Below, piece by piece: positions 5,839 through 56,678 of a stretch of 64,000 nucleotides of DNA. The notes beneath the pieces are model-generated. The model was not told the DNA's origin. It saw nothing but the letters and a program-made list of their open reading frames with translations, and did not search any database. A program made the position numbers and the translations under genes. The stretch's first letter is position 1, and each line of letters begins with the position of its first letter. This DNA comes from Candidatus Doudnabacteria bacterium (GTDB lineage: Bacteria; Patescibacteriota; Doudnabacteria; UBA920): positions 18,102 through 82,101 of the forward strand of contig CAWBGV010000028.1 of the NCBI GenBank assembly GCA_963788395.1, given 5' to 3'.

Positions 5839-6199
5839 GGGGCCCCCGATCCGCCCGAGACGGATTGGGGAAAGGGGCAACAATCCGAACGTAATGGAGT
5901 CGCGTCCGACGCGGACGGAATGGAGTGAGGATTGATTATTTCCTTTTCAGGGCCCCCAATTTTCCATCCCTAGAAAAAAATCATAGGGAAAATTGGGGAA
6001 AGGGGCAACAATCCGAACGTAATGGAGTCGCGTCCGACGCGGACGGAATGGAGTGAGGATTGATTATTTCCTTTTCAGGGCCCCCAATTTTCCATCCCTA
6101 GAAAAAAATCATAGGGAAAATTGGGAAAAGGGGCAACAATCCGAACGTAATGGAGTCGCGTCCGACGCGGACGGAATGGAGTGAGGATTGATTGACCCG
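5839..6199 (-). repeat. tRNA-trailer repeat family, 3 tandem units (128-bp period)
   Basis: The unit ...ggggcaacaatccgaacgtaatggagtcgcgtccgacgcggacggaatggagtgaggattgatt... occurs three times. The junction word cagggccccc recurs at 5948 and 6076. The array abuts the CCA end of tRNA-Leu. Confidence 0.9.
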
Positions 6200-6287
6200 T
6201 GGTGCCCGGGAGAGGATTCGAACCTCCAAGCCCTTGCGGGCGCTGCCACCTCAAGGCAGTGTGTCTCGCCAGTTGCACCACCCGGGC
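6200..6287 (-). tRNA. tRNA-Leu(GAG)
   Basis: Manual cloverleaf: acceptor GCCCGGG/CCCGGGC, anticodon loop TTGAGGT, long variable arm, T-loop TTCGAAT, encoded CCA. Confidence 0.9.
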
Positions 6288-30002: not shown

Positions 30003-30611
30003 CCCATCCGGGCCCTAAATTTTCTCGCCGTTTCCAAATGGAAAATTTGGGGTAAGGGGCAACACCCCGAACGTAACGGAGTGGCCGCCGAGTAGGCGGA
30101 CACGGAGTGGAGTGAGGGTTGATTGACTGTATCTTTTGGGGCCCCCAATTTTTCTAGCAAGGAAAATTGGGGAAAGGGGCAACAACCCGAACGAACGGAG
30201 TGGCCGCCGAGTAGGCGGACACGGAGTGGAGTGAGGGTTGATTGACTGTATCTTTTGGGGTCCCCCAATTTTTCTAGCAAGGAAAATTGGGGAAAGGGGC
30301 AACAACCCGAACGTAACGGAGTGGCCGCCGAGTAGGCGGACACGGAGTGGAGTGAGGGTTGATTGACTGTATCTTTTGGGGTCCCCAATTTTTCTAGCAA
30401 GGAAAATTGGGGAAAGGGGCAACAACCCGAACGTAACGGAGTGGCCGCCGAGTAGGCGGACACGGAGTGGAGTGAGGGTTGATTGACTGTATCTTTTGGT
30501 GCTCCCCAATTTTTCTAGCAAGGGAAATTGGGGAAAGGGGCAACAACCCGAACGAAACGGAGTGGCCGCCGAGTAGGCGGACACGGAGTGGAGTGAGGGT
30601 TGATTGACCCG
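30003..30611 (-). repeat. tRNA-trailer repeat family, 5 tandem units (119-121-bp period)
   Basis: The junction word tgtatcttttgg occurs at 30128, 30247, 30368 and 30488. The units are near-identical, and the last abuts the CCA of tRNA-Phe. Confidence 0.95.
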
Positions 30612-30686
30612 TGGTGCCGGGCCCCAGAGTCGAACTGGGCACGCCTGCCTCTTCAGGGCAGCGCTCTACCGATGAGCTAGCCCGGC
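30612..30686 (-). tRNA. tRNA-Phe(GAA)
   Basis: GCCGGGC…GCCCGGC, anticodon loop CTGAAGA, T-loop TTCGACT, encoded CCA. Confidence 0.9.
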
Positions 30687-30742: not shown

Positions 30743-30941
30743 GTGTTCCTCTTCCCCAAATTCCTTTTCTCTATGTTTTTTCTTCGCTTCGCTTCGAAAA
30801 AACTAAATGTGAAAAGCAATTCGGGGTCCTGCCAATTTTCCATCCCAAATTCAATTGGGAAAATTGGGGCAAGGGGCAACACCCTGAACGTAACGGAGTC
30901 GCGTCCGACGCGACGGAATGGAGTGAAGGGTGATTGACCCG
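30743..30941 (-). repeat. tRNA-trailer repeat family, composite copy (standard unit + inverted long-loop hairpin module)
   Basis: 30823-30941 is a standard unit abutting the tRNA-Val CCA. 30743-30826 is the reverse complement of 47871-47965 in the 16S insertion. Confidence 0.85.
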
Positions 30942-31018
30942 TGGTGGGCGATAAAGGATTCGAACCTTTGGCCTCCTCGGTGTAAACGAGGCGCTCTAAC
31001 CAACTGAGCTAATCGCCC
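30942..31018 (-). tRNA. tRNA-Val(UAC)
   Basis: GGGCGAT…ATCGCCC, anticodon loop TTTACAC, T-loop TTCGAAT, CCA. Confidence 0.9.
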
Positions 31019-32159: not shown

Positions 32160-32234
32160 GGTGCAGTGGCGAAGTGGTAACGCGGCGGTCTGCAAAACCG
32201 CAATGCATGGGTTCGATTCCCATCTGCACCTCCA
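32160..32234 (+). tRNA. tRNA-Cys(GCA)
   Basis: GGTGCAG…CTGCACC, anticodon loop CTGCAAA, T-loop TTCGATT, CCA. Confidence 0.9.
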
Positions 32235-32345
32235 CGGGTCAATCAACCCTCACTCTGCTTCGTCCGCCTCGGGCGGACTCCGCTGCGTTCAGGTTGTTGC
32301 CCCTTACCCCAAATTTTCCCTGCTGGAAAAATTTGTGGGCCCCGA
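32235..32345 (+). repeat. tRNA-trailer repeat family, single unit (plus orientation)
   Basis: cgggtcaatcaaccctcactctgcttcg-[tccgcctcgggcgga]-ctccgctgcgttcaggttgttgcccc-ttaccccaaattttcc/ctgct/ggaaaaatttgtggg-ccccgatggg, directly after the CCA. Confidence 0.9.
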
Positions 32346-39282: not shown

Positions 39283-39404
39283 CCCATCGGGGGCCCCAAA
39301 TTTTCTCGCAATATCCAAAAGGAAAATTTGGGGAAAGGGGCATTGACCGAACGAAGCGGAGTCCGCCCGAGGCGGACGAAGCGGAGTGAGTAATAATTGA
39401 CCCG
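39283..39404 (-). repeat. tRNA-trailer repeat family, single unit
   Basis: Same architecture as 32235-32345. It abuts the CCA of tRNA-Ile. Confidence 0.9.
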
Positions 39405-39480
39405 TGGTGGGCGTGCTAGGACTCGAACCTAGGACCAATCGTGTATAAGACGACCGCTCTACCAACTGAGCTACACGCCC
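39405..39480 (-). tRNA. tRNA-Ile(UAU)
   Basis: GGGCGTG TA GCTC AGTTGGTA GAGC G GTCGT CTTATAC ACGAT TGGTC CTAGG TTCGAGT CCTAG CACGCCC A CCA. Positions 34-36 are TAT. Confidence 0.8.
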
Positions 39481-46329: not shown

Positions 46330-46876
46330 ATGATTATATAATATCAGTTTTTTATGAACCCTTCCAACCGATCCACTTGACAACTCTTCCTAAACCCTTT
46401 AATATAACTAAGGATTTAGAAATTAAATCTTGGAGATTAAAAAAGGCATAACACCGCTAGTCCAATTTTACTCTTATGTAAGCCAAATCTGCTAACGCAG
46501 AAGGTTGATTATAAGGGGTCCGCCAATAGGTGGAAAACTAGGACACTTCAAGTAAGAAACTTGGGTGTTTTTTTAGCCCCTAATTTCCAACACTGCTCTT
46601 TAACAGCTGAATAGTGATTAGAATTTTGTACAAAACCATCGCGTCTCAATTATTTAAACCAATTGAGATGTGAAAACCCGAAAATTTCCGTCCCGGAAAT
46701 CTCGGGGTAAAGTTACGTCAATTTACTAGAGTTCAATGATAATTTATAAGCTTTAATAATTGAGCTTTTCCCAAATCAATTATGCCAGATTTGTATCATT
46801 TTGGTACGGATCGAACCGGATACTATAGATTCCGTTTGGTTAATTCCAAACACCAAGAATTTATTTATCTTTTATA

Positions 46877-46920
<44 letters not shown>

Positions 46921-47623
46921 GACATGCAAGTCGAGTGGGTTTAGACCCACGGCGAACGGGTGAGTAATACCTAGGAATGTCCTTTAAGTTGAGCATATCC
47001 CATCGAAAGATGGTGCAATACTCAATGTGAACAGTGCAAGCACTGTAGATCCCGTTACTGGAATTTACAACGCTTGCGTTTTTAAAGTCGCAAGACGCTT
47101 AAAGCGCAGCCTGGGCACCATCAGCTAGTTGGTAAGGTAATGGCTTACCAAGGCTATGACGGTTAGGGGCCCCGAGAGGGGAAACCCCCACACTGGAACT
47201 GCGACACGGTCCAGACTCCTACGGGAGGCAGCAGTTTGGAATTTTGGACAATGGGCGAAAGCCTGATCCAGCGACGCCGCGTGGACGATGAAGGCCTTCG
47301 GGTCGTAAAGTCCTTTTGCTCGGGAACAATTTTTGAGCGTACCGAGAGAATAAGAGGTTGCTAACTCTGTAAGCCCACACAGGTGGGTTGGTGCAGAGAG
47401 GGTGTAGTAATACATCCTAAGAAAATTTCGCTATATGCTGGAACACCTTGTAAGTTCTGTAGTACTTCCAAAAGAAGTGACAATCTACAGGAAACCCAAA
47501 AAAACGCACCGCTGCGTATAAGGGTTGCAAGACAATCAGCAGGCAATCCTGACGTAAATTTTTGGAAAAAAGAAAACGGAGACAGCCAGTAGCTATCCCC
47601 GTCATGTATTTGGTTTTTGGTTA

Positions 47624-47695
47624 TCATCGGTCAGCGGTTCTATACAAGATGCCGACTACCCCTACGATTACAGTAATTACGATAATCAACCACAT
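47624..47695 (-). CDS. 23-aa hydrophobic peptide encoded antisense within the 16S insertion
   Basis: aaggagg, 7 nt, ATG, MWLIIVITVIVGVVGILYRTADR*. Its stop overlaps (ATGA) the start of the 88-aa ORF 47361-47627. Confidence 0.4.
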   Translation of the reverse strand: MWLIIVITVIVGVVGILYRTADR

Positions 47696-47718
47696 ATTTC
47701 ATCCTCCTTGAACCGTTT

Positions 47719-47747
47719 AAGATAACACAAGTGGATGATCAAGTCAA
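47719..47747 (-). promoter_or_regulatory. sigma70-type promoter for the antisense peptide cassette
   Basis: On the minus strand: TTGACT, 17 nt, TATCTT, about 20 nt upstream of the SD. Confidence 0.45.
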
Positions 47748-48391
47748 TACAGTTGGCTTCCAAAAATTTGCGTCAGGCGAGCCTCAGAGACTACACGCGA
47801 AACTCCCACGTTAAGGTGGGATGATGATATAGTCCACGCTTCATGGCGACATGAAGACCTGGTCCCGAAAGGGGCCCCCAAATTGCTTTTTACATTTTAG
47901 TTTTTTCGACCGAGAGGGAGAAAAAAACATAGAGAAAAGGAATTTGGGGAAGAGGAGCGCTTCACGGAGACGGCACAAAATAAATTTACAATTTATTTTG
48001 TGGAGTCGGAGTGAAGGGCGACGAGCCAGCAGCAGCGGTAATACAGAGACCTCAAGCGTTATCCGGAATCATTGGGCGTAAAGCGTACCGATAGGTGGTT
48101 TACAAAGTCAGAAGTGAAATCCAAAGCTTAACTTTGGGACTGTCTTTTGAAACTTGTAAACTAGAGGGGCAAAGAGGAAGCTGGAACGAACGGTGTAGTA
48201 GTGAAATGCGTTGATATCGTTCGGAACACCAATAGCGTAGGCAGGCTTCTGGGTGCCACCTGACACTGCTAGGACGAAAGCGTGGGGAGCGAATGGGATT
48301 AGATACCCCAGTAGTCCACGCTGTAAACGATGATGATTAGGTGCTAGAGAGTATCGACCCTCTTTAGTACCATAGCTAACGCGTTAAATCA

Positions 48392-48442
<51 letters not shown>

Positions 48443-48446
48443 ACCT

Positions 48447-48480
<34 letters not shown>

Positions 48481-49260
48481 GTAAGCGAGGAACCTTACCA
48501 AGTCTTGACATGTACCTGCATACTCTGGAAACAGAGTAGCCTTCGAGGGTGGTACACAGGTGATGCACGGTTGTCGTCAGCTCGTGCCGTGAGGTGTTCA
48601 CTTAAGTGTGAAAACGAGCGCAACTCCTATCATAAGTTACAAGTGTCTTATGAAACCGCCGGCGTTTAAGCCGGAGGAAGGCGGGAATGACGTCAAATCA
48701 GCGTGTCTCTTACGACTTGGGCGACACACGTGCTACAATGGGGAGAACAAAGGGACGCCAAGGAGCAATCCGGAGCAAATCCTATCAATACTCCCCCCAG
48801 TTCGGATTGAGGGCTGCAACTCGCCCTCATGAAGCCGGAATCGCTAGTAACCGTGGATCAGCCTCGCTACGGTGAATACGTTCTCAGGTTTTGTACACAC
48901 CGCCCGTCAAGCCATGGAAGCGGGAAGCGGCTAAAGTACCTTTATGGTCCTAGGCCGAAGCTCGTAACTGGGGCTAAGTCGTAACAAGGCATCGGTAGCG
49001 GAAGCTGTCGATGGATCACCTCCTTTCTAAGGAACTTTATGCATCCTTTTCCCTTTTCGAAGGGGAATGTTGGTGCACATTCCATTGGTCGTCGTTAATT
49101 TTTTCGAAAATTAGCGCACTTCTTGAAACTTCAAAGAACGACGTAAACTGGTGGTTTTGTAAGGTAATTCTACCGTATTTAGCAATAAATACGGCCTGAG
49201 CGCCAAAATGCTCGGGGTCACTATTTAGCCGTTAAAGGCTTAACACGAAATTGCAAAGAA

Positions 49261-49290: not shown

Positions 49291-49365
49291 ATGTTCTATG
49301 CAAAAACGTCACTTGAATCAACCGCTAAAGTAGGAACTTTAGCGCCAATCTCCAATGATTTGACA

Positions 49366-50262
49366 ATGAGCCAGCTCATTCCGCAGTTCCTGAAGTACGG
49401 CCAGTTTGAATTAATGTTCTCACAAAACACGCTTTTAAAATACGACGAGTGCTTAAAGTGGGTAGTCAGGGACATCGGCGACGTGAAGGTCACCGAATTA
49501 AACCTATTCCATTTCACTGAATTAAAGCAAATAATAACGAACCGTGGTTGCGGCACCAGCCGTGTTGCTTCCATGGTGTTTTCCATGAAAAGTTTCCTAA
49601 AGTATTGCAAGGACTATCTGGAGTTGCCGGTGATGGATTACAAAAAAATCCGTAGCCCAAGGTTTAAGCGCCGGGAAGTGATTTACTTAACTAATGAAGA
49701 AATTGAGCGATTTGTCAGCGCCATTAAAATAAAGAATGGCCCTCGCGCTACTAAGCCGGTGCGTATGGACGGCCTAAGATTTAGGGTCTTGGTAGAAGTC
49801 CTTCTTGGTACCGGCATGCGCATCTCTGAAGCTTTGTCACTAAACCGCGATATGGTCGATTTTGAAAAGGCTGAGGCCAAGATTATCGGCAAAGGCAGCA
49901 AGGAACGCACCGTGTTTTTTAGCAAGCGGTCGCTGGATTGGGTTAAACGTTATCTGTCCCTACGCACAGACAATGAACCCGCATTGTTTCTCACCCAGCA
50001 GAATACGCGCCTGTCCAAGATAGATGTCCCCGGCTTCTTTAAGCGCTACAGCAAGAAGGCCGGTATAACCAAGAAACTGACGCCGCACGTGCTCAGGCAT
50101 ACCTGCGCCACAAACCTGTTGTTTAACGGCTGTCCCATAAATAACGTTCAAGTAATTTTAGGCCATGACCGCTTGGAAACCACTTGCCGTTATTATCTCG
50201 GCGTTGACAAAACTAAGGCCAAGGAAGCGCACGGCAATTATTTAAATTATCAATTGTCGTAA
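49366..50262 (+). CDS. tyrosine recombinase (XerC/D-like integrase)
   Basis: SAM-like N-domain, then ARMDGLRFRVLVEVLLGTGMRISE, HVLRHTCAT, LGHDRLETTCRYY. The ORF opens at 49291, directly after the terminator, so the internal ATG (MSQLIPQF) is preferred. Confidence 0.8.
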   Translation: MSQLIPQFLKYGQFELMFSQNTLLKYDECLKWVVRDIGDVKVTELNLFHFTELKQIITNRGCGTSRVASMVFSMKSFLKYCKDYLELPVMDYKKIRSPRFKRREVIYLTNEEIERFVSAIKIKNGPRATKPVRMDGLRFRVLVEVLLGTGMRISEALSLNRDMVDFEKAEAKIIGKGSKERTVFFSKRSLDWVKRYLSLRTDNEPALFLTQQNTRLSKIDVPGFFKRYSKKAGITKKLTPHVLRHTCATNLLFNGCPINNVQVILGHDRLETTCRYYLGVDKTKAKEAHGNYLNYQLS

Positions 50263-56226: not shown

Positions 56227-56678
56227 AAGATATTACCTTTCTGCCGGCGTAGATAGCACGAAGCCCCGCGCCAGCCGATCCCTTGCGGGATCCATACCCG
56301 TTTCCGGATATGGCCATAGAAAGCTGCTGAACGCGGGGTTCAGTGCTTTCTATGGTCTTGAGCGCCATGCCACCAGCTTGCGCTGGGGGTTTAGGCATTA
56401 AGTTGTTATTTGGATTATAAATCAAAAACACCTTAAAATCAAGGTTTTTTATGCAATTATACCTTTGAGCTAAGGGGATCCTATTTTTTTGACTTACTTC
56501 TAATAATTATCACCTCTACGTTCCCATGCCAGTCAAAAATTCAGATCAGGGGTCGTCGGCCTAATATCTTTCGCTATAATATGCAACCATTATTGTATCG
56601 CCACCAATTCGATTTTTTGTTATGATAATAAAGAATTTAAGCAAAAATTAGGTATTAAATATCCTAAAATAAGACAAG

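Follow-up and report, generated by a model that had tools for sequence, protein, structure and literature searches.

The stretch of DNA analysed here, referred to as the window, comprises 64,000 nucleotides (nt) of contig CAWBGV010000028.1 from a Candidatus Doudnabacteria bacterium (assembly GCA_963788395.1), and it carries a 16S rRNA gene that is interrupted by an insertion. The bacterial small subunit (SSU) rRNA model aligns to positions 46870–49026 of the window with 1302 bits, leaving one unaligned block of ~660 nt at the insertion. By direct reading, the 5′ exon ends in ...GGTTGCTAACTCTGT at 47370 and the 3′ exon restarts with GCCAGCAGCAGCGGTAATAC at 48025. The joined exons read GTGCCAGCAGCAGCGGTAA, which is the site of the 515F primer with GCAGCGG replacing GCCGCGG. 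The insert itself, 47371–48024, is 654 nt long, begins with AAGCC and ends with GCGACGA; here and below, intron boundaries are quoted in the register that restores GUGCCAGC. Using the numbering of the 515F primer, we take the insertion point to lie between Escherichia coli positions 516 and 517. An earlier reading of this DNA, made from the letters alone (hereafter the sequence-only reading), had described the same break and resumption of 16S similarity, the same length and place within the 515F site, the altered primer motif and a 3′ end that is not G in this register, and both the SSU model and the joined exons bear it out on these points. As 24 other independent assemblies from different projects have the same intron at this place in 16S, and the fold of the intron RNA is 7.6 standard deviations more stable than that of shuffled sequences (z = −7.6), the insert is neither a chance feature nor one of the assembly.

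We conclude, with a probability of about 0.93, that the insert is a group I intron located after U516 of the 16S rRNA, and that it is an endonuclease-less descendant of a mobile family widespread in the 16S genes of Patescibacteria. The Rfam group I model, RF00028, matches positions 47361–47856 on the plus strand over its full length (model positions 1–253), scoring 55.6 bits where the gathering threshold is 50 (E = 2e-11 for the whole window); the relatives labelled L101, L106 and L112 score 84.7, 74.3 and 69.8 bits, respectively. The sequence-only reading had seen no canonical group I hallmarks in the insert, and had named a clear match to a group I model as the finding that would speak against this view. 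Since RF00028 provides just such a match, the view has to be abandoned: P1, the guide sequence, P10, P3 to P8, the P7 pseudoknot and P9 are all present. The three local hairpins that it listed are all real and correspond to the P1 extension, P8 and P9, although the last had been placed one base off. A group II intron is rejected, as no group II family in Rfam matches at the gathering threshold or at E ≤ 1, and the 5′ end is AAGCC rather than GUGYG.

The catalytic core was drawn by hand from P1 to P8 and scored on an alignment of 14 distinct family cores. The proposed pairs form in 98.4% of cells, and in 33–49% when the 3′ partners are slid by 1–3 columns. Compensatory changes were found in 18 of the 46 pairs (all 8 in P2, 2 in P3, 3 in P5, 1 in P6 and 4 in P8), and none of 500 shuffles reached the observed covariation score, while P4 and P7 are invariant. 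The P1 pairs form in all 14 cores, and so does the U·G wobble at the 5′ splice site, U47370·G47393 in the window, which is followed there by an extra pair, A47371–U47392. On the guide strand, P1 is contiguous with the bases that pair with the 3′ exon to form P10, and this exon segment, which we take to be E. coli 517–522, is invariant in the family. Next to the bulged A47788 in P7 lies G47789–C47834, invariant in all 14 cores, which by analogy with G264–C311 of Tetrahymena is presumably the guanosine-binding pair. An unconstrained minimum-free-energy fold recovers P1, P2, the P6 stem, P8, P9 and two long hairpins of the 3′ tail, P9.1 and P9.2. The positions of these elements, together with those of a reverse-strand cassette within P6, are collected in Table 1.

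Table 1. Elements of the S516 intron, its flanking exon segments and the cassette in P6 (window coordinates; ORF, open reading frame).
Feature	Position	Strand	Basis and remarks
5′ exon end CUCUGU	47365..47370	+	P1 exon strand, pairs with GCAGAG; U47370 in the U·G wobble at the 5′ splice site
Group I intron, 654 nt, without endonuclease ORF	47371..48024	+	RF00028, 55.6 bits; 24 homologues; fold z −7.6
P1 extension hairpin AGCCCAC-ACAG-GUGGGUU	47372..47389	+	Reading and fold; relatives have equivalent hairpins of other sequence
Internal guide sequence	47387..47398	+	GCAGAG 47393–47398 for P1; GUUGGU 47387–47392 for P10
P2, GUAA tetraloop	47399..47418	+	8/8 pairs compensatory; tetraloop invariant
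P3 5′ strand UUUCGC	47426..47431	+	Pairs with GCGAAA 47797–47802; 100% paired, 2 pairs compensatory
P4, enclosing P5 and its extension	47436..47541	+	P4 strands 47436–47441/47536–47541, invariant in the family
P5	47447–47450/47528–47531	+	3/4 pairs compensatory
Branched P5 extension	47451–47527	+	Folds as predicted
P6 basal helix and cargo-bearing 18-bp stem	47542..47783	+	Basal helix 47542–47544/47781–47783; stem 47548–47565/47760–47777
Reverse-strand cassette in P6 tip	47566..47759	-	ORF list and reading; flanks conserved in L093/L114
Promoter-like site TTGACT-17-TATCTT	47747–47719	-	Upstream TG
Ribosome-binding site AAGGAGG	47709–47703	-	Seven bases upstream of ATG at 47695
23-codon ORF	47695–47624	-	Encodes MWLIIVITVIVGVVGILYRTADR; ends TGA TAA
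Terminator-like 13-bp hairpin and T run	47603–47575, T run to 47565	-
P7	47787..47835	+	47787 and 47789–47793 with 47830–47835, A47788 bulged; invariant 14/14; encloses P3 3′ strand and P8
P8	47804–47821	+	4/6 pairs compensatory
P9, GCGA tetraloop	47839..47856	+	Model alignment and fold; identical in L106, L094, L114
3′ tail of peripheral hairpins	47857..48021	+	Small GAAA-capped hairpin, P9.1, P9.2
P9.1	47876–47884/47941–47949	+	Fold; CCCCAAAUU with AAUUUGGGG
P9.2	~47958–48020	+	Fold
P9.0 3′ strand and terminal A	48022..48024	+	C48022 and G48023 pair with G47838 and C47837; A48024 at the place of the terminal guanosine (omega-G)
3′ exon start GCCAGC	48025..48030	+	P10 exon strand, complementary to 47387–47392

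Relatives of the intron were sought with a pattern in which the guide sequence follows the exon sequence within 8–38 nt. In species-representative genomes this pattern proved too degenerate, with true 16S introns accounting for 6 of 90 matches and chance for most of the rest; the hosts found were Woesebacteria, Uhrbacteria, Kerfeldbacteria, one genome labelled Saccharibacteria and others labelled only Patescibacteria group. Metagenomes gave 18 true intron copies among 22 matching contigs. The ORFs of these relatives match LAGLIDADG_2 (E = 4e-22), a profile built from them retrieved 493 LAGLIDADG_2 proteins at E ≤ 1e-20, and contigs encoding some of these homologues added further members of the family, including one or more from Roizmanbacteria. 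In total, the family numbers 25 distinct introns at the same site, the window copy included. An intact LAGLIDADG_2 ORF of ~200 residues, starting right after P7/P9, is present in seven relatives; in the others it is decayed or missing, and the window intron belongs to the ORF-less group. As the sequence-only reading had it, no homing-endonuclease ORF is convincing in the ORF list, and a remnant of such a gene is rejected too, as a tblastn search of the window intron with LAGLIDADG proteins from seven relatives gave a best E of 0.09. The nearest intron relatives, L106, L093/L114 and L094, sit in 16S genes with 90.6%, 95.4% and 86.9% identity to that of the window, and these are also the 16S genes most similar to the window's. 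This agreement is consistent with vertical inheritance of the intron within one lineage.

Group I introns in 16S genes of the Candidate Phyla Radiation (CPR) were reportedly first noted by Brown et al. in 2015. The sequence-only reading had called insertions a known trait of CPR 16S genes and had proposed a comparison with other insertions at the same site; 24 homologous introns at that site were collected, and a published survey agrees that group I introns are common in these genes (PMC11270868). There, the same Rfam model assigns 35% of CPR 16S insertions to group I; Tsurumaki et al. (2024) count 134 such insertions in 16S genes, of which 49 are ORF-less, and find them concentrated at a small number of conserved sites (PMC11270868). 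The window intron thus adds one more member to a published group, which it resembles in host group, gene, Rfam model, LAGLIDADG_2 association and the existence of ORF-less members, while the 3′-end A/G polymorphism, P9.0 and reverse-strand cargo considered below are not described in the parts of the survey consulted (PMC11270868).

Several points weigh against our interpretation of the insert. The RF00028 score lies only ~5 bits over the threshold, mainly as a result of the 220-nt insertion in P6, and the last intron base is A48024 instead of the near-universal G, though the guanosine-binding pair in P7 is a canonical G–C. The core structure and the family relationship are shown by the alignment, and from them we infer catalysis, the exact 3′ cut and exon ligation. 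The missing terminal G is not in itself evidence against a group I intron, because the 3′ end is polymorphic throughout the family: in the register that restores 16S, 14 of the 25 introns end in A (13 of the 24 relatives) and 11 in G, and a pyrimidine never occurs. The first intron base is G in 19 and A in 6, and always pairs with the guide base next to P1; this guide base is U, or C only where the first intron base is G (5/5).

The terminal base is correlated with a second feature of the 3′ end. In all 14 introns that end in A, the first bases after P7 can pair with the bases 5′ of the terminal A to form a P9.0 of 2–3 base pairs (bp), realised by six different pair combinations, of which the window has C47837–G48023 and G47838–C48022. 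Such a P9.0 next to the terminus is possible in only 1 of the 11 introns that end in G (Fisher p = 3e-6, kinship ignored), and the P7 G–C pair is the same in both groups. Roughly, we put the chance of exact splicing at S516 with a terminal A, assisted by P9.0, at about half.

For the window intron to end in omega-G, both splice sites would have to lie one base further right; the exon would then end with A47371, the intron with G48025, and the mature 16S rRNA would have A517; most relatives, whose first intron base is G, would keep G at 517. This shifted register would give all 25 family members a terminal G, in keeping with the invariant G–C pair in P7, which argues for a G bound in the second step, and with the constant pairing of the first intron base to the guide. 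However, the pair at the cleavage site would become G·U, G–C or A–U, whereas the conserved U·G lies one position upstream in every member; six taxa would have A at the universally conserved G517; two relatives that start with A and end with G (L125 and L129) are fully canonical without any shift; and P9.0 would land one base from the terminal G. For these reasons we regard the shifted register as unlikely. An exact-pattern scan for intron-less 16S genes with A at 517, which covered viral contigs only, found none.

A second way to supply the terminal G would be a 5′ cut after U516 combined with the use of G48025 (G517) as the end of the intron, which would retain both the U·G pair and a terminal G but leave the mature 16S rRNA one nucleotide short (CUCUGU-CCAGC). 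In Tetrahymena, mutation of the terminal G moves the choice of 3′ splice site to nearby Gs, and the proposed cut would parallel this shift. Against it, closely related hosts would have or lack a deletion in the universally conserved 530 loop according to whether their introns end in A or in G, and four A-ending introns (L091, L097, L116 and L119) have intact endonuclease genes and appear to be actively mobile, a state that requires near-neutral, exact splicing. We consider a cut at G517 very improbable. We hold much the same view of a lack of splicing altogether, by which either the excision of an RNase III-type intervening sequence or of a decayed intron would leave a fragmented 16S rRNA, or the gene would be a pseudogene. 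Fragmenting intervening sequences are known in bacterial 23S rRNA and have been proposed for some CPR insertions (PMC11270868), and the missing terminal G and endonuclease could mark decay. Yet all elements of the catalytic core are intact, either identical to or compensated relative to those of endonuclease-bearing relatives, a break in the 530 loop would be harmful, and the remaining 16S gene aligns over its full length. Finally, only the general risk of metagenome assemblies speaks for a chimeric assembly or for foreign DNA having been joined to the 16S contig, and this explanation is most improbable given the same junction in 24 other assemblies and, since the nearest introns sit in the nearest 16S genes, the agreement of intron and exon similarity on the same closest relatives.

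Under exact splicing at S516, the inferred course is that of the standard group I pathway. The guide GCAGAG would pair with the exon CUCUGU to form P1 with its wobble at U47370, and an external guanosine, held at the G–C pair of P7, would attack after U47370. P10 would form next, between the neighbouring guide bases GUUGGU and GCCAGC of the 3′ exon, while P9.0 (47837–47838 with 48022–48023) would set the 3′ end in place, and ligation of the exons would restore GUGCCAGCAGCAGCGG in the 530 loop. With A48024 as the last intron base, this step would either proceed without a terminal G or involve a cut one base further on. The P5 extension, the cargo-bearing 18-bp stem of P6 and the P9.1/P9.2 tail are peripheral additions.

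In the nuclear SSU rDNA of eukaryotes, S516 is a classic position for group I introns (PMC9223047), and the IC1 and IE introns found there in myxomycetes, Naegleria and red algae share the identical insertion point, after U516 and before GCCAGC (PMC9223047, PMC3679873). By site and features, they also resemble the CPR family in the U·G pair at the 5′ splice site and in peripheral insertions like those of the window, including large P6 insertions in Naegleria (PMC9223047, PMC3679873); the myxomycete introns carry direct-repeat arrays in peripheral helices, as do L112, L114 and L095. In these three relatives, P8 of L112 and of L114 and P6 of L095 are filled by direct-repeat arrays (e.g. GGAAGTTAGAGGTT or TTAGAG units) paired with their complements. 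The eukaryotic S516 introns differ in that the terminal G is present and their endonucleases are of the His-Cys box type. The hexacoral mitochondrial intron ND5-717 is a natural group I intron that, like the A-ending CPR introns, lacks the terminal G, and its exons are exactly ligated in vivo (PMC6545197). ND5-717, however, resides in a mitochondrial protein-coding gene, is strictly vertical and is thought to depend on host factors (PMC6545197), whereas in the CPR family even close relatives, some of them apparently mobile, differ in whether they end in A or G.

Relatives of the window intron differ further at their periphery and in their surroundings. Between P2 and P3, L093, L094, L095 and L099 share an insertion of ~60–105 nt (~60 nt in L099) that the window intron does not have. 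In L114, the closest relative, the intron–exon junction (reverse strand, ~1089–1199) is occupied by an element of 99 nt that is bounded by inverted repeats of 16 bp (CCCGTTAGAAAATT...) and flanked by duplicated GCCAGC. It resembles a miniature inverted-repeat element that has duplicated a 6-bp target, and its presence gives two candidate 3′ splice sites, of which the distal one ends in G. A Moraniibacteria genome (L024, at 1747) contains hairpins with the same arms. Some relatives (L122–L124, L119, L125 and L130) have several more 16S insertions within ~1.5 kb of the S516 intron, which encode 23S_rRNA_IVP, LAGLIDADG_1, LAGLIDADG_2 or LAGLIDADG_3 proteins. The group I intron is the only large insertion in the window 16S gene, which also shows, at 47041–47073, an expansion of 33 nt relative to the bacterial SSU model; it affects a variable 5′-domain helix around model position 188.

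After P9, the window intron continues for 168 nt as a tail comprising a small hairpin and the long hairpins P9.1 and P9.2. The stems of both long hairpins are common to L106 and L094, and since the tail is absent from L114, they are dispensable periphery. A second copy of the tail was found in the window at ~30839–30690 on the minus strand, between genes for tRNA-Val (30942–31018) and tRNA-Phe (30612–30686) and in the same orientation as these (85.7% identity over 98 nt, E = 4.5e-25). Its homology to the intron resumes at ...GCGACGA and stops exactly at the intron end, three bases before the 5′ end of tRNA-Phe. If this copy arose via an RNA intermediate, the boundary of homology would favour A48024 as the true 3′ end of the intron. 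Apart from this pair in the window, a motif search gave only a single copy in each of the introns of L094 and L106, and an Rfam scan at relaxed thresholds found no known RNA family in the spacer between the two tRNA genes. In 5 of the 7 tRNA genes of the window, the encoded CCA end is directly followed by the motif CGGGTCAATCA (6189–6201, 30601–30613, 30931–30943, 32233–32245 and 39394–39406). These 5 matches compare with 1.07 expected, and 0 of 100 shuffles reached 5; the motif may be a shared 3′ trailer or processing signal.

The P6 region measures 244 nt in the window against 29–47 nt in most relatives, and its tip holds the reverse-strand cassette of Table 1, in which a promoter-like site, a ribosome-binding site, a 23-codon ORF and a terminator-like hairpin follow one another. 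Among 4000 dinucleotide-preserving shuffles of the intron, 145 contained a strong Shine-Dalgarno sequence, an ATG and an ORF of at least 20 codons, and 3 of these also had a promoter-like site upstream; the test scored promoter, Shine-Dalgarno sequence and ORF only, as a stricter terminator rule misses the real terminator. The closest relative, L093/L114, is more informative: it has the same P6 stem, the same −35 and extended −10 around a diverged spacer, the same region after the stop codon and the same terminator position. Between these flanks it carries a different ORF of 101 residues with its own Shine-Dalgarno sequence, and P6 of L094 holds yet another ORF, of 65 residues on the sense strand with a strong Shine-Dalgarno sequence. 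None of the three products has a Pfam or NCBIfam match. A search for homologues of the 101-residue ORF found only the ORF itself, and its AlphaFold model (pLDDT, the predicted local distance difference test, of 43) is too low for use. Homology between the proteins of the window and L093 was considered, as W, L, G, G, R and R are shared when the two are aligned in frame by eye, and was rejected, since BLAST did not support it and only the DNA flanks align.

We read the P6 cassette as hitch-hiking cargo, because group I introns of eukaryotic nuclei are known to harbour antisense genes as well as insertions in P6 (PMC3679873, PMC9223047), among them the antisense-oriented gene of the Didymium intron S956-2 (PMC3679873). 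Unlike the cargo of the eukaryotic S516 introns, that of the window has bacterial-type expression signals and no recognisable endonuclease. Judging from the sequence, the window cassette may be an internally deleted remnant in which the expression signals survive. The cassette also recalls type I toxin–antitoxin systems such as hok/sok, ldr and ibs, with which it has in common a strong ribosome-binding site ahead of a short ORF for a hydrophobic peptide, and the complete overlap of this ORF by an abundant antisense transcript, here the pre-rRNA or the intron. It differs from them in that no family matches and the peptide is not conserved in the closest relative, and the toxin-like look of the 23-residue peptide is only a resemblance. 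That the CPR S516 family, this copy included, contains introns that ligate with a terminal A, the juxtaposed P9.0 compensating for omega-G, and that this lineage in addition uses the P6 tip as a protected site for an independently transcribed cassette on the reverse strand, is a broader proposal that we hold tentatively, at somewhat less than even odds.

Elsewhere in the window, a tyrosine recombinase gene (Phage_integrase, 49291–50262) begins 265 nt past the 3′ end of the 16S gene, and no 23S gene follows the 16S gene anywhere. A LOOT RNA motif (RF03000) matches over its full length at 56277–56397 on the minus strand, with 88.9 bits against a gathering score of 46.4.

Our data call for annotation of the insertion as a group I intron and for the 16S sequence to be read with 47371–48024 removed. 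Because the intron splits the 515F site, this annotation matters for primer design and for the phylogenetic placement of the lineage. With group I introns in CPR 16S genes already described, the parts of residual interest are the subfamily ending in A, in which P9.0 goes with the terminal base, and the P6 cassette conserved on the reverse strand. Interchangeable ORFs between a conserved reverse-strand promoter and terminator suggest that introns in single-copy rRNA genes can stably carry small accessory genes. The terminal guanosine, normally required for the second step of splicing, is absent from over half of the intron family, and its loss accompanies a covarying P9.0 adjacent to the splice site. 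If ligation does take place with a terminal A, these introns would provide the first example of omega-G-independent splicing in bacteria and in rRNA, and with exact ligation the family would offer a compact natural system in which to study how a 3′ splice site is selected in the absence of omega-G.

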